Shown: one piece after another, positions 3,705-41,221 of the stretch
Layout of the letters: each line of letters starts with the position of its first letter
Position numbering within the stretch: position 1 is the first letter of the stretch
Origin: a virus
DNA length: 64,000 nt
IMG/VR virus record: IMGVR_UViG_3300017917_004998
Coordinates: 1 to 64,000 of that record
Direction: 5' to 3' (one strand)
The notes under the pieces: model-generated
Databases searched by the model: none
Seen by the model: only the letters and a program-made list of their open reading frames with translations
Told to the model about the DNA's origin: nothing
Program-made: the position numbers and the translations under genes

Positions 3705-4229
3705 ATGGGTATGAGAATGGCAAAAGCACCACAAGAACACGTGGATACTTTAAGGAGATGGATGCAGTTCAACGACGAATTGTGTAAAATCGATCCAACT
3801 AATGAATTTGAGTGGAATGGGTTTAAAGAAGATTGGGAAGACGAAGAGGATTTTGTTAAAATCATAAAGCATTGTGAGGATGACCGAGGTTTTACCTGGG
3901 ATTACTTTATGGATTACTATCAATCAAATATCTCTTGGATTCATATGAGAGTAATCTTAGGTTTCGAAGTGATGGTTGACAATGTTTGTGATCCAGATCT
4001 TGACTATCTTGAGTTTAAACCCGAAATAAAGAAATTTTTGGGAAACGAACCCATTGTTAAATTCAAAGCTAAGCGAATCGATACTGGTGATTGGGTTACT
4101 GGATTTTTCACAAAGAAAAAAGTTGGTAGATTAATAGTTCCGGTCATCGAGGTTTACAAGGAATGGGATAATGGGGATTATATGGAGACATACGAAATTG
4201 ATGGAGCAACTCTAACTTATGCAGATTAA
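3705..4229 (+). CDS. hypothetical protein
   Basis: 174 aa ORF. Confidence 0.75.
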   Translation: MGMRMAKAPQEHVDTLRRWMQFNDELCKIDPTNEFEWNGFKEDWEDEEDFVKIIKHCEDDRGFTWDYFMDYYQSNISWIHMRVILGFEVMVDNVCDPDLDYLEFKPEIKKFLGNEPIVKFKAKRIDTGDWVTGFFTKKKVGRLIVPVIEVYKEWDNGDYMETYEIDGATLTYAD

Positions 4230-7565: not shown

Positions 7566-8438
7566 TTAGAACCCAATATCTCCAAGATTCCCGACAAGAT
7601 CTGCATCAGATTCATATCCTTTAGGCCAAATCAATTTGGACCTGATGTCTTTAAAGTCCACATCGTTCCAAAGAGGCTTTAAAACTATCGCCATCTTACC
7701 TGGATCCATTTCAATCTCTTTATTCAGGTCTTCCACAGGAATGAGTGGTGCAATCAATTGTTTCGTTTCCAAATTTCCGCTTTTAAAAAGTGTCAGCAGT
7801 TTTTCTTGACTCCATCCACCCAGAGCAACTTCAAAAGCATCGCATCTGAAAGGACCTCCAATTCTTTTAGGTGCTCCTGCTAGAGATGAGAGTGTATTTG
7901 CATTACAAAAGAAACCTTTTCCAACCTCTATAGGTCCTCCAGCAAGAGAATTAATGTTGGTGAAAGTGCAAGAAAAATTTCCTCCAACTTTCTTTGGAGA
8001 TCCTGCTAATGTAGAAACACTGCTATGTGAACACGAAAAATCCCCACCAACCTCCTCTGGTGCTCCGTCAAGACTTGTAAGGGAATTATGGTTGCAATAA
8101 AAATTTCTACCAACCTTTTTCGGACCTCCAATTAGTGAGGTTAGTTGATTGGAATCGCACTGAAAATTATTCCCAACCTCTTTGGGTGCTCCGTCAAGTG
8201 AAGTCAGAAGATTGTACCCACATTCGAAATTGCCACTAACCTTACCAAACTTTATTCCACGTAGATCCCCTATCTCATGACTCGAAAAAGAAACATTTCC
8301 TCTGACATCGACTAGACCTGTCGAAGGATCGAATGACCATTTTCCATCTACCCACTTGTTCAGAAATTCTTTCTGCTCATTGGTGAGATCACTCCGATCT
8401 TGTGATTCAAATACCTTATATGGCTTAATGTGTTTCAT
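7566..8438 (-). CDS. leucine-rich-repeat protein (22-aa LxSLxGAPxxVGGxFxCxxN repeats), tandem copy 6
   Basis: About 6 repeats; N-term MKHIKPYKVFES, C-term GNLGDIGF. Confidence 0.88.
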   Translation of the reverse strand: MKHIKPYKVFESQDRSDLTNEQKEFLNKWVDGKWSFDPSTGLVDVRGNVSFSSHEIGDLRGIKFGKVSGNFECGYNLLTSLDGAPKEVGNNFQCDSNQLTSLIGGPKKVGRNFYCNHNSLTSLDGAPEEVGGDFSCSHSSVSTLAGSPKKVGGNFSCTFTNINSLAGGPIEVGKGFFCNANTLSSLAGAPKRIGGPFRCDAFEVALGGWSQEKLLTLFKSGNLETKQLIAPLIPVEDLNKEIEMDPGKMAIVLKPLWNDVDFKDIRSKLIWPKGYESDADLVGNLGDIGF

Positions 8439-17020: not shown

Positions 17021-17094
17021 GCTCCCTTGGCGGAATTGGTATACGCGCAGCACTTAGGATGCTGATTTTGGGAGTTCGAGTCTCCCAGGGAGTA
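17021..17094 (+). tRNA. trnL-UAG: tRNA-Leu(UAG) with a short 5-nt variable loop
   Basis: Leu-type D arm GGCGGAATTGGTATACGC; anticodon arm CAGCA-CTTAGGA-TGCTG; variable region ATTTT. Confidence 0.85.
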
Positions 17095-17252
17095 CAAGGG
17101 TCATGTCTTTTTGTTGTTTGATATCATAGAAAATCTATGACCTTGACTGGGCTTCTAAGGAGCCCAGTTTTTTTGTGGACTTATTTTTTTGTGGCGATGC
17201 GTGACATTACATTTACCAAACAGGCAGGAAAGATGGGAAATACTTCTGCTGC

Positions 17253-26086: not shown

Positions 26087-27202
26087 ATGGAAATCCTACT
26101 AAAGAAAACCAAAATCACCAAATCGATCATCAATCAGAGTCTACCTGCTCCTATCGATGCATTTTTGAAAACAGATTTTTATTATGAAGTTCTGGGCTGG
26201 TGTATGTACAATGACAAAAAGATTGTACTGCTATATGAGAGGGCTACCAATCAGGTCAGAACCTATTTCTACACACCTTCGTTCGGCAAGAAATACCAAT
26301 TCCTCGAAAGAGCTAGAGTTCAAAGGCCAGACATAAACGGGGGATGGGTTTTTCCTGAGGTTTACATTCTCAACATTCTAACAGAGGACGAAAGACCCGC
26401 TTATAGGCACGAGCAGAAGGAAAGCGAAACAGACGAGAAGATGAAGGAGATGGAAGAGAAGGCAATGAAGTACGCAGTCAGAGTTGCACAGGCAGGACAG
26501 ATTTACATCTAAAAAAAATTAGAATTTCTTTTTTTCTCTACGTTTGTTGATCTTATATTTAAGGTATCAAACAACAAGACCATGAAACAATACATCTTCT
26601 ACTACTACGACGAAAGCAGAGCATCCACATTCGGACCATGCTTAGTTAAAGGCCAGGGCGAAACCAAAAAGGAAGCATTTCTGGACGCTGCTAAGCGACA
26701 CTTCAACAACCCTGACGAAGAGGAGATAGCAGAATTCATGGAGAAAGCTGTTACATTGGCAACAGTCACCGGCTTGGGTGCAGAGGTCAAGATCAGTCAG
26801 AAGAACTTTGGAATGATCTTTGAAAGGTAAAATAATGAAAAGGTTTCTAAAATACAACATCTCAATCTTCAAAGTCTGGCTGACGTATATATTTTTACGA
26901 AAGCCATTCACACAGGAGGCGTACGACATTGTCAAGGACAACTACAGGTCAACACCAAGAGAGAAGAAAATCATGGTCAGAATCGCCAGGATCAATAGAT
27001 TAACCACATAATGGTAAAATTCCCGAGGAACCCAAAAGATGGTCAATTATTTTGTTCTGTGAATCTTGATCCAGCAACAAAAGATGGCGGCAGGTACGTC
27101 TATTGGCAGGGGAGATGGGTAGTTATAGATGGGGAGAGGAAAGAAAGAATTCCCACCATCACGAGCAGGATAAAGCATCTAAGAAAACATATTGACAAAT
27201 GA
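26087..27202 (+). CDS. early-type hypothetical genes 26087..26512, 26582..26830, 26835..27011, 27011..27202
   Basis: Promoter-led cassettes or coupled ORFs. Confidence 0.75.
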
Positions 27203-27573
27203 AAGACTTTACAGAATACCAAGAAGCTTTAGAGTTAAAGGAAATTGGATTTGACGAACCTTGTTTTGGAAGGTATAATAACAATGATGATTATCTATTA
27301 ATTGCTCATACTGAAAAATACATCATTAGTAACGGTGTTGATAGAAGTGAGTTTTTTATACTAGCACCACTTTACCAACAAGCATTCAGATGGTTTAGAG
27401 AGAAGTTTGGCTTAGTAGGTTTAATCGAGATTGGTACACAGGAATATTCTTTTCTCATATACGATGAAAAGACAGATAGTCGAAAAGTAACAAGTTCCAT
27501 GAATGGTACCTACGAAGAAGCGGAACTTGCTTGTCTTAGAAAACTAATTGAGCTTGCCAAAGAGGCTCGATAA
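27199..27573 (+). CDS. family-C paralog (ALELKEIGFDEPC...APxYxQAFR.FRE...YEEAELACLRK)
   Basis: Three conserved blocks shared with 28608 and 29038. Confidence 0.85.
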   Translation: MKDFTEYQEALELKEIGFDEPCFGRYNNNDDYLLIAHTEKYIISNGVDRSEFFILAPLYQQAFRWFREKFGLVGLIEIGTQEYSFLIYDEKTDSRKVTSSMNGTYEEAELACLRKLIELAKEAR

Positions 27574-28607: not shown

Positions 28608-28967
28608 ATGATAGAAAAAGACTTTACACCATACGGAGAAGCTTTAGATCTAAAGCAACTTGGATTTGACGAACCTTGTTTTGGTGTTTATGCCACAAAG
28701 GATGGATATGTCAGAAAAAGTGCATATGATGAAAATGGAGATGCTCCAACCTATTATCAAGCATTTAGATTCTTTAGAGAGAAGTATAAGTTAAAATGTT
28801 GCATTATTCCATTAGTATGCGAGCAGGGATTTTCGGATTTATATGAAAGTCGAATCCATCAAGAAAAACATAGTATTTCAATAATAGGTAATCATAAAGA
28901 TTACGAAGAAGCAGAACTCGCCTGCCTTAGAAAGATGATCGAAATAGTCAAAGCCTCTAAAAAATAA
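28608..28967 (+). CDS. family-C paralog
   Basis: Conserved blocks. Confidence 0.85.
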   Translation: MIEKDFTPYGEALDLKQLGFDEPCFGVYATKDGYVRKSAYDENGDAPTYYQAFRFFREKYKLKCCIIPLVCEQGFSDLYESRIHQEKHSISIIGNHKDYEEAELACLRKMIEIVKASKK

Positions 28968-29037: not shown

Positions 29038-29427
29038 ATGATAGAAAAAGATTTTACACCCCGCACAGAAGCTTTAGAGTTAAAAGAAATTGGATTTGAT
29101 GAACCTTGCTTAAAGTTTTATGCAAACGGGAAATTGGTATTGGGACTTGATACTGACAATGGTGATGCTAACAGTAAACTGAGTCAGTATAATCAGTTGT
29201 TTGTTTCCGCGCCAACCTACTCACAAGCATTTAGATTCTTTAGAGAGAATCATAAATTTCATTCAAACGTTAAATGTGTTGATACCGTTACCAATAAGCA
29301 TTTTCGATACGAAATAGAATCTAATGGGGAGACATTAGTTTGTCGTAATAGAATTGAATCTTACGAAGAAGCAGAACTTGCTTGTCTCAGAAAGATGATC
29401 GAAATCGTCAAAGCCTCTAAAAAATAA
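29038..29427 (+). CDS. family-C paralog
   Basis: Conserved blocks; 3' end and downstream DNA nearly identical to the 28608 copy. Confidence 0.85.
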   Translation: MIEKDFTPRTEALELKEIGFDEPCLKFYANGKLVLGLDTDNGDANSKLSQYNQLFVSAPTYSQAFRFFRENHKFHSNVKCVDTVTNKHFRYEIESNGETLVCRNRIESYEEAELACLRKMIEIVKASKK

Positions 29428-29492
29428 ATTGGGATTCTCATTTTTTCTCTACGTTCTTAGTTCTTATGTTTACAGTATCAAAACAAAAGAAA

Positions 29493-29626
29493 TAGTCAGG
29501 CATCGGAAGTGCAATAGCGGTATAATAAACTATGGTAGGGCGAAAATCTGAGATAGTGTAAAAACCTGCAAAAGATGGGAAACCAATTGAAGCTATTGTA
29601 ACAGGTTCGAATCCTGTCCTGACTAC
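29493..29626 (+). ncRNA. tRNA-like element 1 (no D arm; long multi-hairpin insert)
   Basis: TAGTCAGG...CCTGACTA acceptor, ACAGGTTCGAATCCTGT T arm, internal stem GCAATAGC/GCTATTGT; directly after an early promoter. Confidence 0.75.
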
Positions 29627-29641
29627 TAAAAAATAAAAAAT

Positions 29642-29761
29642 ATGCAAAACTTTTTAACATTTTTCCTCTATCCCCTATGTGCAACGCTTTCAACAATCTT
29701 TTTGTTTGCTATTGGTATCCAAATTGAAAAAATAAGAAAAGATAATCATACGGAATCTTAA
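29642..29761 (+). CDS. 39 aa membrane microprotein
   Basis: MQNFLTFFLYPLCATLSTIFLFAIGIQIEKIRKDNHTES*. Confidence 0.6.
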   Translation: MQNFLTFFLYPLCATLSTIFLFAIGIQIEKIRKDNHTES

Positions 29762-29815
29762 TCGAGACCGTGTATTCTATCAACAACGATCTTTGACGTA
29801 CTGGAATAAATTAAT

Positions 29816-29924
29816 TAGTCAGGTGGCGGAATGGTAGACGCTAGAAGTGAATAGATAAGTTAGTATGTTGTCACTTAAAACCATTTACAACTTATCATAC
29901 AGGTTCGAATCCTGTCCTGACTAC
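29816..29924 (+). ncRNA. tRNA-like element 2
   Basis: Leu-type D arm, then stem GATAAGTT/AACTTATC abutting the T arm; no anticodon arm. Confidence 0.8.
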
Positions 29925-29982
29925 GAAACCCAAGAGCATTTTACATGAACACTGGTTGACAGCTCGGAAAGTACGAGCAACA

Positions 29983-30060
29983 TAGTCAGGTAAAGTTGGC
30001 ATCGGAATTGGCAGTCTAGAATGTTCCACCGAGTATAGGTTCGAATCCTGTCCTGGCTAC
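29983..30060 (+). ncRNA. tRNA-like element 3 (no recognisable D arm)
   Basis: TAGTCAGG...ATAGGTTCGAATCCTGTCCTGGCTAC. Confidence 0.7.
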
Positions 30061-30128
30061 AAAAATTAGATTCTCATTTTTTATCTACGGCCCGAATGCT
30101 TACATTTAAGGTATCAAATAAAGGAAAT

Positions 30129-30353
30129 ATGAAAATAATGGAAATTTTACTTTTGACAAGCTGGATTTTGGGGATCTTATTATCAATCCTTTTTACAATT
30201 GGTGCTTGGATTACTAAAGATAAAAAACAGTGGGAAAATGCATGGCTTTTTTTTGTATTAGCCTTTTTTACTGGATACATCACAACAATACCAATTATTT
30301 TCGTCTGTGTGGTTCTATCGTTAAGTACAAGATTCAGACAAAATGAAAAGTAG
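30129..30353 (+). CDS. small multi-pass membrane protein
   Basis: Hydrophobic 74 aa ORF after a promoter. Confidence 0.7.
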   Translation: MKIMEILLLTSWILGILLSILFTIGAWITKDKKQWENAWLFFVLAFFTGYITTIPIIFVCVVLSLSTRFRQNEK

Positions 30354-30360
30354 ATAAACC

Positions 30361-30678
30361 GTGATAAAATTTAATCTATACAGCGAGCTGGAAGGAATAG
30401 ACTACTCTTTGAATACATCATTTAATAGTGTGGATGAATTCATAGAGTGGATGGACGACGACTATGATGCATTTGTAGATGAGATGGAAACGTCAAATGG
30501 AGAGGATTGGAGTGGAGTTCATGACTTCGCATCCGGATATGAAGATGGCGCGGGATTTGTCGGATATTCCTCGTACGAGATTAAAAACTTCGAGGCTGCT
30601 TTGGATAGATGGAGAGAATTTTTTAGGTCCAGGGGTAAGTTAGTAGATAACACTATAGTCAGGTGGCGGAATTGGTAG
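30361..30678 (+). CDS. acidic hypothetical protein whose stop lies inside tRNA-like element 4
   Basis: GTG start; last codons IVRWRNW* are encoded by the repeat. Confidence 0.7.
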   Translation: MIKFNLYSELEGIDYSLNTSFNSVDEFIEWMDDDYDAFVDEMETSNGEDWSGVHDFASGYEDGAGFVGYSSYEIKNFEAALDRWREFFRSRGKLVDNTIVRWRNW

Positions 30679-30789
30679 ACGCCCCGGACCAAATCCGAAA
30701 AAGAGTAGTGACTCTATGATGGATGAAAACTGGGTCAGCTTGTAGGGTCACACATACATGATTGCAGGTTCGAATCCTGTCCTGACTAC
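30656..30789 (+). ncRNA. tRNA-like element 4
   Basis: Leu-type D arm; insert with GTGACTCTA/TAGGGTCAC stem. Confidence 0.8.
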
Positions 30790-30861
30790 AAATAAAAATT
30801 AGATTCTCATTTTTTATCTACGTTCTTAGTTCTTATATTTACAGTATCAAAACAAAAGAAA

Positions 30862-30967
30862 TAGTCAGGTAGCTCAAATGGTAAGAGCGTTTGTTTGTTA
30901 GGATGTGTACAGTCCGACTAAAAAGAACACAAACAAAAGATGCATGGATCGTTCCTGTCCTGACTAC
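30862..30967 (+). ncRNA. tRNA-like element 5 (class-I D arm, 9-bp extended anticodon stem, degenerate T loop)
   Basis: GCTCAAATGGTAAGAGC; TTTGTTTGT/ACAAACAAA; directly after an early promoter. Confidence 0.75.
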
Positions 30968-30984
30968 AAATAATACATCTAAGT

Positions 30985-31179
30985 ATGAAAGAAAAGGTTT
31001 TTAAATGGATCGATGCTCATAACCTAACTCTAGAAGAAGCTGGGGATCTCGAATATCTGTTATCTTTGATTGGTAACTTCGAGGAAAACTATGAGGTGGA
31101 GTTTGAGGAAGAGAATGCTATTGGGTTGGCTATGGATTACCAAATTCATTTTAGAAAAAAGCTGGAGAATATGGGCTAA
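30985..31179 (+). CDS. 64 aa acidic protein
   Basis: ATG 18 nt after element 5. Confidence 0.7.
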   Translation: MKEKVFKWIDAHNLTLEEAGDLEYLLSLIGNFEENYEVEFEEENAIGLAMDYQIHFRKKLENMG

Positions 31180-31224
31180 TCCCATATATTCTATCAACAA
31201 TGATCTTTGACATAATAAGAAATT

Positions 31225-31353
31225 AAAAAGCCGCCTCAGAGAGGAGCAAGATTTATGTACTGTGCGTCATCCTAGTACGATAAATCCGTAATGGTGGTCC
31301 GCAAGACCTTTAACCCCAAGAGTAAAAGGACGTGAGGGGTTGGGCGGCTTTTT
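31225..31353 (+). ncRNA. structured RNA closed by AAAAAGCCGCC/GGCGGCTTTTT
   Basis: Nested stems GATTTAT-GTACT/AGTAC-G-ATAAATC, GGTC-cgcaa-GACC and ACCCC/GGGGT. Confidence 0.55.
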
Positions 31354-31357
31354 TAAA

Positions 31358-31483
31358 TAGTCAGGTGGCGGAATGGTAAACGCAACAGTAGACGGTTCTC
31401 AGTCCTAACGACAAAGAGTAGCTAACTTTGAAAGTAGGTGTCTGGTTAATCTGAGAAACAGGTTCGAATCCTGTCCTGACTAC
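31358..31483 (+). ncRNA. tRNA-like element 6
   Basis: Leu-type D arm; TTCTCAG/CTGAGAA stem with nested CCTA/TAGG and CAAAG/CTTTG. Confidence 0.8.
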
Positions 31484-31550
31484 AAAAATTAGATTCTCAT
31501 TTTTTATCTACGTTCTTAGTTCTTACATTTACAGTATCAAACAAAAGAAA

Positions 31551-31651
31551 TAGTCAGGTGGCGAAATTGGTAGACGCACTGGACAGGCGATGCATTTAAA
31601 ACAGAAATAAGCCCAGTCGGTACTTACAGGTTCAAATCCTGTCCTGGCTAC
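31551..31651 (+). ncRNA. tRNA-like element 7 (anticodon stem with oversized loop)
   Basis: ACTGG/CCAGT stem closing about 29 nt; directly after an early promoter. Confidence 0.8.
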
Positions 31652-31699
31652 AAACCTTAGGATTAATTACCCTAAGGCTGAGAGGTTCGAAACTCTCGA

Positions 31700-31786
31700 T
31701 TGACTATGGTGTAAAGGCGCACAGCAGAACGGAGTAGTAATACGAAAGGGGACGCAGGATTAAGGTTCGAATCCTTATTAGTCAGC
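31700..31786 (+). ncRNA. tRNA-like element of a second type (acceptor TTGACTA/TAGTCAG)
   Basis: D arm GTG-taaaggcg-CAC, T arm TAAGGTTCGAATCCTTA, no anticodon stem. Confidence 0.6.
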
Positions 31787-31792
31787 AAAACA

Positions 31793-31903
31793 CAGTCAGG
31801 TGGCGGAATTGGTAGACGCTTAAATGGAGTATCATGTTGTAGAACCAGTACGAAAACTACATCCTCTATATTCACTAACAGGTTCGAATCCTGTCCTGAC
31901 TGC
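31793..31903 (+). ncRNA. tRNA-like element 8 (C-1:G73 variant)
   Basis: CAGTCAGG...CCTGACTG; insert with TGTAG/CTACA stem. Confidence 0.8.
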
Positions 31904-31955
31904 AAATTCAGTTATCGGTGAGCAAGTCTGAATTAAAACAAAATCTTGCTCTACC

Positions 31956-32044
31956 TAGTCAAGTGGCGGAATTGGTTAGACGCATGCGGTGGATTTTAAT
32001 TGGAATTGCTGCTAAATTACAGGTTCGAATCCTGTCCTGACTAC
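31956..32044 (+). ncRNA. tRNA-like element 9
   Basis: Leu-type D arm; single extended hairpin with a 4-nt loop. Confidence 0.8.
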
Positions 32045-32059
32045 TAAAATTAAAAAACT

Positions 32060-32155
32060 ATGGGAGACCTTATAATCGTGAGTTTAGTGATGAATGTATT
32101 TTCTTTTTATGCAATTTACCTCCTTAAAAAAGAAGTTGATAAATTAAAAAGGTAA
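32060..32155 (+). CDS. 31 aa membrane microprotein
   Basis: MGDLIIVSLVMNVFSFYAIYLLKKEVDKLKR*. Confidence 0.6.
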   Translation: MGDLIIVSLVMNVFSFYAIYLLKKEVDKLKR

Positions 32156-32162
32156 AACAAAA

Positions 32163-32250
32163 TAGTCAGGTGGCGGAATTGGTTAGACGCATGCGGTAAC
32201 TTTTAAACGGAAGTCTGCTAAACTACAGGTTCGAATCCTGTCCTGACTAC
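32163..32250 (+). ncRNA. tRNA-like element 10 (sister of element 9)
   Basis: Same fold as element 9 with compensatory changes. Confidence 0.8.
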
Positions 32251-32263
32251 TAAAAATATAATT

Positions 32264-32446
32264 ATGATAGATTTAGATAAAGCGAAATTCATCGGAGAAG
32301 GTGAATGGGTTAAAGATTCAGCATATCAGGTATATGAATTGGACGGTAAATATTATTCCGTTATAGTAATTGGGCATGACAATAAAGAAATTATGGATGA
32401 TTCGATAACTGAAATTGCTAAAGAAGATATTAGTAAATACATCTAA
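32264..32446 (+). CDS. 60 aa acidic protein
   Basis: Fills the gap between elements 10 and 11. Confidence 0.7.
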   Translation: MIDLDKAKFIGEGEWVKDSAYQVYELDGKYYSVIVIGHDNKEIMDDSITEIAKEDISKYI

Positions 32447-32452
32447 ATAAAA

Positions 32453-32569
32453 TAGTCAGGTGGCGGAATTGGATAGACGCTATTAGGGAGTTATAGTAAG
32501 TGGGAATTTCTCACCGCAATCGGAGCCTTAACACTTACACTACAGGTTCAAATCCTGTCCTGACTACCA
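32453..32569 (+). ncRNA. tRNA-like element 11 (encodes CCA)
   Basis: GTAAGTG/CACTTAC stem; ends CCTGACT-A-CCA. Confidence 0.8.
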
Positions 32570-32670
32570 AAAATCATGAGTTGTTGTTGACTCCGGGGCT
32601 GAGAGAAATCTCAGCCTCATTTTTTTGAAACGTAGTGGTTTTCTATATTTACAGTATCAAACAAAAGAAA

Positions 32671-32745
32671 TAGTCAGGTAGCTCAACGGTGAGCGGGTCC
32701 GTAACAGGAGTTGCCGTATGCAGGTTCGAATCCTGTCCTGACTAC
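32671..32745 (+). ncRNA. tRNA-like element 12 (shortest; class-I D arm, 6-nt loop)
   Basis: GCTCAACGGTGAGC; TCC-gtaaca-GGA; directly after an early promoter. Confidence 0.75.
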
Positions 32746-32758
32746 AAAAAATAAAGTT

Positions 32759-32896
32759 ATGAAAAAAGATACAAAAGATACATTAAAAGTTGTTGGCATA
32801 ATGATTATGTTTACATCATTACTTCTTTATAGTTTTTATGTGCATAGAAATGAACCACATTGGTTTGAAACAAGATATGTTAAAATTGTAAAATAA
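32759..32896 (+). CDS. 45 aa single-pass membrane microprotein
   Basis: MKKDTKDTLKVVGIMIMFTSLLLYSFYVH...; ATG 14 nt after element 12. Confidence 0.65.
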   Translation: MKKDTKDTLKVVGIMIMFTSLLLYSFYVHRNEPHWFETRYVKIVK

Positions 32897-32902
32897 ACAA
32901 AA

Positions 32903-33014
32903 TAGTCAGGTGGCGGAATGGTAGACGCAAGTGAGATATTATTAGAGCGCCTCAAGTAGCATGAGGAGTCGCAAAGTTATAATATCATACAGGTTCGAAT
33001 CCTGTCCTGACTAC
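32903..33014 (+). ncRNA. tRNA-like element 13
   Basis: GATATTAT/ATAATATC stem with nested CCTCA/TGAGG. Confidence 0.8.
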
Positions 33015-33031
33015 AAATAATACATCTAAAT

Positions 33032-33235
33032 ATGACAGTTAAAGAGCTCAAAGAAAAATTGGAGGGGCTTGATCCAGATATGAAAGTCGGGGGCAGAGGA
33101 CACTTCGGTGAATTCCTTCAGACATGGGATGCAAGGGTAACCGAGGCTTCCGTAGGAGGTGGCCTATATAGAGAAGGAGTAAAAGAGGAAATATTCTACA
33201 TATCAATCGAGGACGCAGGTCCAGATCCAGATTAA
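33032..33235 (+). CDS. 67 aa protein flanked on both sides by the element 3' end
   Basis: MTVKELKEKLEGLDPDMKV...; followed by GAATCCTGTCCTGACTACA. Confidence 0.75.
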   Translation: MTVKELKEKLEGLDPDMKVGGRGHFGEFLQTWDARVTEASVGGGLYREGVKEEIFYISIEDAGPDPD

Positions 33236-33237
33236 CC

Positions 33238-33256
33238 GAATCCTGTCCTGACTACA
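33238..33256 (+). repeat. isolated 3' half of the tRNA-like repeat
   Basis: GAATCCTGTCCTGACTACA without the 5' part. Confidence 0.85.
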
Positions 33257-33277: not shown

Positions 33278-33535
33278 ATGAAAACTTACACAGAAGAAGA
33301 GGTTAAGGAATTAATCCATGCAGTGGTTTTAGAAACAGCAAAAGGAGTTAAAGATTGGTTTGAAAAGGAGACTGTCATCAAAAACAAAGAAACTGGAGAT
33401 GTGATAGAAGATGCGAACCTCTGCCTAAAGGAAGATCCAGCAAACCCGCTAAAGGGTTACATCTACCCAAGGCTCGAAAAATTCGGGATCGAGTACAACA
33501 CGGAACTAGGTGCATTTCGACCCACACAGAAGTAA
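33278..33535 (+). CDS. hypothetical protein
   Basis: 85 aa ORF; GATATATA at 33265. Confidence 0.7.
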   Translation: MKTYTEEEVKELIHAVVLETAKGVKDWFEKETVIKNKETGDVIEDANLCLKEDPANPLKGYIYPRLEKFGIEYNTELGAFRPTQK

Positions 33536-40465: not shown

Positions 40466-41221
40466 ATGAAAATAGCTACTACATTTGAGGATTTCCTGAA
40501 CGAACAGGAGACTGAGATACACAAGATGCTTATTCAATTCCTACACGAAGGTGTTAGAATGGAAAGGGTTTCTTCGAGTATAAACGAAGGCACTGTGTCT
40601 AAGGCTGATTATGAATTGAATAGACTAATTAAGAGAGAAGAGGAAAAGGGTGGGACTCCGATAATCAAAGAATTTTTGCCTGAGGTGAAAGCATTGGTGA
40701 AGAAATTTGCAGACTCTGGACAGAGCGGGGGATCTGCTCCCTTCACAACCTCTGTGATCTTGAATGTGATTGAAAAACTTCTGAAGCAAGAACCATTGGG
40801 TGGAGTTGAGAATACAGAAGATGAATGGTATAGCTTATCCACATTTGGTGACAAAGAAAGTTATCAAAACAATAGACTTAGTTCTGTCTTTAAAGAAGGG
40901 AAGAAAGGAAGACCTTATTATCTAAACGCAATCGTATTTAGAAGTCCGGGTAAAAATTATACATTCACCTCAGGATCTGTTGATCTACAAGATTTGGCTG
41001 GAGATGGGGGTGGTGGCAAAATAGGTTCATCACAGTACATCAAATCATTCCCATTTGAGCCCAAAACATTTGTCATCGACGTTGACGAGAAAGAATATAG
41101 AAAGCTAAAAGACGGAACTCTGGTTGAAGAGGATGGTGGAGGCTGGTGGGAGTCTTGGGTAAAAGACCCAAAACAGCTTGACGAAGTCTGGGAATACTAC
41201 GACAGAAAAAAGACCAAGTAA
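40466..41221 (+). CDS. tagged hypothetical protein (MKIATTFEDFLNE)
   Basis: 251 aa ORF; AATATATA upstream. Confidence 0.8.
   Translation: MKIATTFEDFLNEQETEIHKMLIQFLHEGVRMERVSSSINEGTVSKADYELNRLIKREEEKGGTPIIKEFLPEVKALVKKFADSGQSGGSAPFTTSVILNVIEKLLKQEPLGGVENTEDEWYSLSTFGDKESYQNNRLSSVFKEGKKGRPYYLNAIVFRSPGKNYTFTSGSVDLQDLAGDGGGGKIGSSQYIKSFPFEPKTFVIDVDEKEYRKLKDGTLVEEDGGGWWESWVKDPKQLDEVWEYYDRKKTK

Follow-up and report, generated by a model that had tools for sequence, protein, structure and literature searches.

The window analysed here, 64 kb in length, is the first part of the 123,063-bp single-contig genome IMGVR_UViG_3300017917_004998 from the IMG/VR database (38% G+C). It stems from a tailed phage with a contractile tail, since the proteins encoded in the window include a tail sheath, a large terminase, a DnaB helicase and an SbcC-like nuclease. 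Between positions 29494 and 33255 the plus strand carries an array of 13 full tRNA-like elements and one additional 3' stub (Table 1), confirming the location and number of elements that had been proposed from the letters alone (hereafter the sequence-only reading). The elements combine a constant tRNA-type frame with inserts that differ from copy to copy. Most gaps between them are occupied by micro-open reading frames (micro-ORFs) of 31–105 codons.

All 13 elements possess the 7-bp acceptor stem AGTCAGG/CCTG(A/G)CT and a discriminator base. A common T arm, consisting of a 5-bp T stem and a 7-nt TTCRANT-type T-loop, is present in 12; the T loop of the remaining one (element 5) is degenerate, as had been noticed before. 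The 21-nt motif GGTTCRAATCCTGTCCTGRCT, which comprises T arm and acceptor sequence, occurs 12 times in the window, always on the plus strand (29604–33012), compared with an expectation of zero copies by chance. Each motif pairs with an AGTCAGG located 73–132 nt upstream (AGTCAAG in element 9), and the elements measure 73–132 nt from A1 to A73. The D arms are Leu-type in nine elements (2, 4, 6–11 and 13), class I in two (5 and 12) and missing in two (1 and 3), the census given by the sequence-only reading, which had called the first type Leu/Ser.

Table 1. Features of the tRNA-like array and of its surroundings in the window.
Feature	Position	Strand	Remarks
Element 1	29494–29625	+	no D arm; conserved module of ~85 nt, 9-bp closing stem stacked on T arm
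Element 2	29817–29923	+	Leu-type D arm; 58-nt insert, orthologue in L117
Element 3	29984–30059	+	no standard D arm; short insert; G:U at pair 5:68; similar element in L091
Element 4	30657–30788	+	Leu-type D arm, small hairpin with 5-nt loop, then arm of ~60 nt; orthologue in L142, L214–L216
Element 5	30863–30966	+	class-I D arm; degenerate T loop; 32 nt inserted in anticodon-like stem
Element 6	31359–31482	+	Leu-type D arm; 75-nt insert
Element 7	31552–31650	+	Leu-type D arm; 50-nt insert
Element 8	31794–31902	+	Leu-type D arm; G73 with C at -1; 12 orthologues
Element 9	31957–32043	+	sister of element 10, 88% identity over 50 nt
Element 10	32164–32249	+	anticodon arm replaced by 10-bp rod with 4-nt loop
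Element 11	32454–32566	+	Leu-type D arm; 64-nt insert
Element 12	32672–32744	+	class-I D arm; size of a tRNA
Element 13	32904–33013	+	Leu-type D arm; 61-nt insert, fold z = -2.4
3' stub	33236–33255	+	20 nt: half T loop, 3' T-stem strand, 3' acceptor strand, AC; directly after ORF 33032–33235
Composite tRNA-like RNA	31655–31787	+	14th, divergent: hairpin, T-arm-like hairpin (loop GTTCGAAA), tRNA-like body
130-nt RNA	31225–31354		11-bp GC-rich closing stem ending in T run; 4 nt before element 6
Promoter-like module	29424–29488	+	ends 5 nt before element 1
Promoter-like module	30793–30857	+	ends 4–5 nt before element 5
Promoter-like module	31483–31547	+	ends 4–5 nt before element 7
Promoter-like module	32603–32667	+	ends 4–5 nt before element 12
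Terminator-like GC hairpin and T run	32590–32626	+	after element 11
Micro-ORF	29642–29761	+	
Micro-ORF	30096–30353	+	
Micro-ORF	30361–30678	+	
Micro-ORF	30985–31179	+	
Micro-ORF	32060–32155	+	
Micro-ORF	32264–32446	+	
Micro-ORF	32711–32896	+	
Micro-ORF	33032–33235	+	
Micro-ORF	33278–33535	+	
25-nt leader	30966–30991		after element 5
25-nt leader	33013–33038		after element 13
Paralogous ORFs	27199–27573, 28608–28967, 29038–29427		119–129 codons, immediately upstream of the array
tRNA-Leu(tag)	17021–17095		75 nt only; Leu-type D arm, short variable region
Tad3 domain protein	40466–41221		type I Thoeris inhibitor domain, E = 6e-20; 7 kb downstream of the array

The frame is not restricted to this genome. 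Its exact 22-nt 3' end matches at least 120 IMG/VR contigs, and its 17-nt 5' end likewise at least 120, many of them additional to the former; uncultured phage contigs with the frame number at least 220. About 200 loci, which are labelled by L-numbers, yielded 294 distinct elements of 52–196 nt, comprising hundreds of insert types. Elements of other phages are housed in clusters of ordinary, high-scoring tRNA genes. A BLAST search of the array against 50,697 phage records gave no match.

Conservation of the frame follows the architecture of a tRNA. The consensus acceptor pair is found in 278–286 of the 294 elements at pairs 2–7 and in 263 at pair 1:72, and the bases engaged in tertiary contacts (U8, A14, A15, G18–G19, U48 and T54–T55–C56–A58, with the A15:U48 pair) are kept family-wide. 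The T stem covaries: loci found by the 5' end alone have ACAGG/CCTGT, GTAGG/CCTAC, GCCCG/CGGGT, ACTGG/CCAGT or GATGG/CCATC, and these variants are compensatory. In L222, which carries an element of the element 8 type, U:A replaces C:G at acceptor pair 4:69, and G:C replaces A:U at T-stem pair 51:63. Judged by these patterns in the sequence, the frame is a tRNA-type RNA under selection.

The ends of the elements resemble those of real tRNAs encoded by the phage. A73 is followed by C74, without a full CCA, in 285 of the 294 elements, C74 being part of neither search pattern, and the same A-C end without full CCA is present in the phage's own tRNA-Arg(tct) and tRNA-Leu(tag). The T arm of the frame is shared with this tRNA-Arg(tct) and its D arm with this tRNA-Leu(tag), which is of class-I size, unusual for a tRNA-Leu. 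Position -1 is most often U (67% in the set whose search pattern did not include -1), which fits the usual leader preference of RNase P. Because end signals are shared with neighbouring real tRNAs, the elements probably undergo the same maturation. A covarying -1:73 pair was considered and rejected family-wide, as the combination C(-1):G73 occurs once compared with 20 cases of U(-1):G73 and 33 of C(-1):A73.

On the host side, one genome per species was scanned for the exact motif in 185,579 species. It was found in just 18 contigs, all of them from metagenome-assembled genomes (MAGs) and all cargo-bearing, never in an ordinary tRNA; no host tRNA with the acceptor stem of the frame was thus among the exact motif matches. 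Most of the MAG bins concerned are assigned to Chitinophagia, Sediminibacterium, Flavobacterium, Saprospirales and other Bacteroidota. A Chitinophagia tRNA-Leu(gag) has the D arm and the A73–C74 end of the frame, whereas acceptor stem and T arm differ. On the basis of the MAG bins and of this D arm and end, the hosts are likely to be freshwater Bacteroidota. With bacterial class II tRNA-Leu (RF00005) the frame shares, in addition to the D arm identical to that of this Chitinophagia tRNA-Leu, A73, the A15:U48 pair, G18G19 and the T loop; unlike these tRNAs, the elements have no anticodon arm.

Leucyl-tRNA synthetase (LeuRS) of Escherichia coli requires A73, A15:U48, G18G19, A20a and contacts between D and T loop, and tRNA variants without anticodon and variable arms remain active with this enzyme (PMC9976931). 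Every LeuRS feature named there is present in the frame, with U48 found in seven of the nine Leu-type elements of the window. This match makes charging with leucine plausible for about two-thirds of the family.

The elements are not decoding tRNAs, which agrees with the sequence-only reading in that a true anticodon arm is missing. ARAGORN called two of the 13 window elements (element 9 as Ser-gga and element 12 as Val-aac), both with poor anticodon stems. Family-wide, there were 56 calls on 291 real elements compared with 51 on the same elements with shuffled inserts; when introns were allowed, the numbers were 196 and 203, respectively. The Rfam tRNA family RF00005 matched seven window elements at 36–43 bits (gathering score 29) and one at 23.8 bits, and five had no hit. 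These matches align the frame alone and skip 15–60 nt in the middle, so that the scores come from the frame. No other Rfam family fitting the window elements was found, including YrlA (Y-RNA-like) at E ≤ 1, and the earlier statement that Rfam holds no family specific to the elements therefore stands. A weak PreQ1-like match (E = 0.32), which reaches from the T arm of element 9 into the A-rich leader of the following ORF, was taken as chance.

Two roles suggested by the sequence-only reading lose ground from these data. Decoys of anticodon nucleases (PrrC, RloC, VapC and PARIS types) would have to mimic anticodon loops, and as anticodon-like hairpins occur no more often than in shuffled inserts, this role is unsupported. 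With regard to a tmRNA-like mimic, neither ARAGORN nor Rfam detected a tmRNA in the window, there is no tag frame, and pair 3:70 is U:A and not G:U. The frame as such is compatible with a normal decoder, because L039 (minus strand, from 1217) combines the AGTCAGG acceptor and the ACAGG T stem with a 5-bp anticodon stem and the loop CTTTTAA, giving a tRNA-Lys(UUU) that is canonical throughout. A Lys(CUU)-like copy with G33 is present in L006.

The inserts are highly diverse, the largest type among the 294 elements having six members. Inserts of one type have a median identity of 86%, compared with about 40% for the 60-nt flanks, the background level of this scoring. Orthologues in other phages were found for the inserts of elements 1, 2, 3, 4 and 8, five of the 13 in the window. 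Differences that preserve pairing occur among them: between element 4 and L142, a 9-bp stem shows two double changes and one change from G:U to A:U. In the element 8 type, compensatory pairs occur in acceptor, T and insert stems; one insert pair is G:C in four members and A:U in three, and the unpaired stretches are almost invariant. Compensatory pairs were also seen in insert types other than those of elements 1, 4 and 8. These conserved inserts with compensatory changes across phages bear out the proposal of a constant tRNA frame with variable, folded inserts under selection.

The module of about 85 nt in element 1 is found in 15 viral contigs and in at least three different frames. Seven distinct contigs (L039, L115, L204 and L208–L211) have it inside the tRNA frame. 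In L202, L203, L205, L207 and L213 it caps a long hairpin which has the D-loop-like sequence CGGAATTGG, no T arm and a different end stem; a further frame is used in L206 and L212 and another one in L201. Across these frames, seven pairs of the closing stem show double changes, and the interior is nearly invariant. The persistence of the module as the frame changes argues that the insert is the functional unit. In the L203 group (L203, 2990–3240 on the minus strand, and also L202, L205, L207 and L213), the hairpin under the module has the base CTTATAAC/GTTATAAG. It is followed by a second long hairpin with a similar base, and the two together may form a larger RNA at the end of an operon.

We conclude with moderate confidence that the family is a natural tRNA scaffold, in which host tRNA enzymes would excise and stabilise each RNA and the insert would be the working part. 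The elements would then be genes for small non-decoding RNAs on a single tRNA-Leu-derived frame, made up of acceptor stem, A73–C74, Leu-type D arm, elbow and T arm. Transcription would start from repeated promoter modules, in units shared with the micro-ORFs. Host RNase P, 3'-end trimming and the CCA-adding enzyme would read the frame, resulting in exact excision and in stability, and the same cuts would split the messages of neighbouring micro-ORFs. About two-thirds of the RNAs may carry leucine, given that the frame holds the published identity elements of E. coli LeuRS. Located at the site of the anticodon and variable arms, the insert would be an independent folded module which probably binds a host or phage factor early in infection; an aptamer or ligand role of the inserts, as suggested from the sequence before, is possible. 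Inserts would be exchanged between frames by recombination in the constant ends. A more specific proposal, which we put forward only tentatively and consider more doubtful than the scaffold itself, is that the family is a display library of freshwater Bacteroidota phages, whose modules, carried on the one tRNA-Leu frame, would bind proteins and serve as inhibitors or decoys during host takeover and against host defences.

Several observations weigh against the scaffold reading. For eight of the window inserts, no orthologues were found among the loci compared. Fold-energy z-scores of the window inserts range from +0.7 to -2.4, with several near 0, and the family-wide mean of -1.0 is a modest gain over shuffled sequences; the sequence-only reading, which had seen clean stems in nearly every insert, overstated this, as only three of ten tested inserts reach about -2. 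None of the comparisons revealed a target for an insert. Antisense matches of the 13 inserts to the phage's genome are at best 10–14 nt long, within the range of shuffled sequences, and Rfam families inside inserts were detected neither in the window nor in 18 other loci. The element 1 module has no relatives in Rfam and none beyond chance in 401 Bacteroidota genomes. No conserved partner protein emerged, the commonest neighbouring ORF cluster being present in just 24 of the roughly 200 loci. Finally, the acceptor stem is near-invariant across hundreds of phages, which is stricter than a mere scaffold needs.

Further comparisons of the inserts gave no additional relationships. There is no k-mer enrichment across inserts beyond the insert types themselves. 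Element 11 has no exact 22-mer partner in IMG/VR, and a single exact-word match to element 13 is unrelated and was attributed to chance. Cognate RNA–ORF pairs in the style of type III toxin–antitoxin systems were rejected because insert types are not linked to the downstream sequence.

The strictness of the acceptor stem, which extends to A73 and C74, leads to the alternative that the frame itself does the work. Leucine-chargeable or CCA-tailed tRNA top halves would soak up a tRNA-binding host factor, for example LeuRS or a nuclease reading acceptor stem, T arm and CCA tail, and the inserts would tune or diversify this action. The full LeuRS identity set and a dosage effect of the 13 copies in this phage would fit. 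However, neither the conservation of insert sequence and pairing across phages nor the survival of the element 1 module in frames without a T arm is explained, four of the 13 elements have no Leu-type D arm, and there is no mimicry of the anticodon loop. We consider this alternative unlikely.

A second alternative assigns the function to the cuts. Comparable to the punctuation of mitochondrial transcripts by tRNAs or to MALAT1–mascRNA, tRNA-shaped cut sites would act in cis to separate and stabilise micro-ORF messages, with the inserts as passengers. An ORF start lies within 30 nt downstream of 33% of the elements family-wide, compared with 16% of random positions, and an ORF stop within 30 nt upstream of 27%; in the window, six to seven elements have an ATG within about 20 nt downstream. 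Cutting at the frame would therefore separate messages as well. Yet two-thirds of the elements have no adjacent ORF start and many are located among ordinary tRNAs, which would do as well as cut sites. Since insert types are not tied to downstream sequences and insert conservation is not explained, we regard punctuation of this kind as rather improbable, below the titration of a host factor.

Thirdly, the elements could be recombination junctions at the DNA level, like integron attC sites or the PeSL modules of T4, with constant ends that shuffle gene or RNA cassettes. One frame occurs with different inserts and one insert in different flanks, the 3' stub directly follows an ORF, L165 has a D loop fused directly to the T loop with no insert, and L146, L151 and L174 contain terminator–promoter blocks within the 3' acceptor strand. 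Against this, DNA recombination makes no use of conserved tertiary-contact bases or of covariation in the T stem, the ends of the elements resemble a tRNA and not attC R and L boxes, and there is no integrase or recombinase among the conserved neighbours in the roughly 200 loci, the whole genome not having been scanned for an integrase. As a function this is quite improbable; it reads better as a description of how the family evolved. Rearranged elements in L146, L151, L174, L189 and L165, with hairpin or terminator–promoter-like blocks set into the 3' acceptor strand or, in L165, with no insert, resemble traces left by recombination within the constant regions.

That the elements are decayed tRNA duplicates or intron-interrupted tRNA genes is, as already held in the sequence-only reading with respect to decay, highly improbable: the low Rfam tRNA scores (24–43 bits), a few canonical-looking members such as the tRNA-Lys(UUU) on the frame in L039 and group I introns in related phages would be in keeping with it, but an intact frame in about 300 members is not what decay would leave behind, the inserts show compensatory change, tRNA calls with introns allowed do not exceed those with shuffled inserts, no intron family from Rfam matches in the window, and group I introns are longer than these inserts.

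Apart from the 13 elements listed by the first reading, the array contains a divergent composite tRNA-like RNA between elements 7 and 8. Its end stem (TTGACTA/TAGTCAG) is close to the two strands of the usual frame in swapped order. It is kept in L009, L015, L041, L045 and L223, where the two hairpins as well as the end stem show compensatory changes. The 130-nt RNA ahead of element 6, for which Rfam gave no match, resembles a terminator hairpin whose interior is large and structured.

The 65-nt promoter-like module is present in 16 copies within 24–35 kb, usually ahead of small ORFs. The micro-ORFs in the window have no match among families of known function. Elements 5 and 13 are both followed by a common 25-nt leader (ACAAATAATACATCTAA.TATG), ahead of two different micro-ORFs. 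The three paralogous ORFs upstream of the array have relatives in 16 of the compared loci and belong only to PHROG families of unknown function. Identifiable neighbour clusters in the roughly 200 loci include DUF932, terminase, phosphoesterase and methylase. The Tad3-like protein fits an accessory or anti-defence region and proves nothing about the RNAs.

Loci with frame elements contain further RNAs. In L008, a phage tmRNA gene abuts or is interrupted by a group I intron (7609–8193), and another group I intron is present in L207 (3473–3709). L015 has a near-threshold match to the Rfam freshwater-1 RNA (4124–4186; 70.1 bits compared with a threshold of 72), located in a cluster of phage tRNAs in which frame elements are found as well.

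RNAs of this kind have precedents in well-studied phages. In the tRNA region of T5 (AY543070), tRNAs are interspersed with micro-ORFs, HNH genes and several stable RNAs, two of which, RNA1 and RNA2 (misc_RNA 30501–30644 and 32959–33083), are annotated as 'tRNA-like stable RNA with unknown functions'. RNA1 combines a paired acceptor-like stem and a T arm with a D arm of Leu type (GCCGGAAUUGGUAGACGG), and an insert of about 75 nt occupies the place of the anticodon arm. In RNA2, the end stem is 8 bp long, the T arm reads GCAGG-UUCGAAU-CCUGU, and the insert contains a T-arm-like hairpin. As in the array described here, both are located in a phage tRNA region interleaved with micro-ORFs. Since the T5 RNAs have the same build and accumulate in infected E. 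coli, the kind is already known, and the array is not the singular system it had first seemed; it is one instance of a huge family. The T5 RNAs differ in that they have other acceptor sequences without the AGUCAGG frame and number two or three per genome, and a shared-frame family with swapped inserts is not described for them. A full-text literature search did not find a description of one fixed frame in hundreds of phages, of hundreds of exchangeable inserts or of arrays of 13.

Phage T4 likewise has two small stable RNAs, species 1 and 2 (rnaC and rnaD), which are encoded in its tRNA cluster and matured together with the tRNAs, and whose function is unknown. Compared by description, they are not known to share a frame with many cargo types. 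The murine gammaherpesvirus 68 TMERs form a viral array of uncharged tRNA-like units from which tRNA processing releases other small RNAs. These differ in belonging to a eukaryotic virus and in being transcribed by RNA polymerase III, and their cargo is located 3' of the tRNA-like unit and not inside. Engineered tRNA scaffolds of the Ponchon–Dardel type come close in principle, as a structured RNA replaces the anticodon arm and tRNA enzymes process and stabilise the product; they are a laboratory design, whereas the phage version is natural and built on tRNA-Leu.

The 22-nt frame motif provides a simple search key for further members of the family. If the scaffold reading is true, phages would have found the tRNA-scaffold trick of RNA engineers and would use it for hundreds of folded RNAs. 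The family would represent a large untapped pool of functional RNAs (such as binders, inhibitors or decoys), none of which matches a catalogued family. Should the display library also prove true, it would be the RNA counterpart of small early proteins, with the 13-gene array as a compact sampler and with modules that are perhaps charged. On the scaffold reading, the family would also provide a way into a long-standing question, the purpose of the tRNA-like stable RNAs in T5 and T4.

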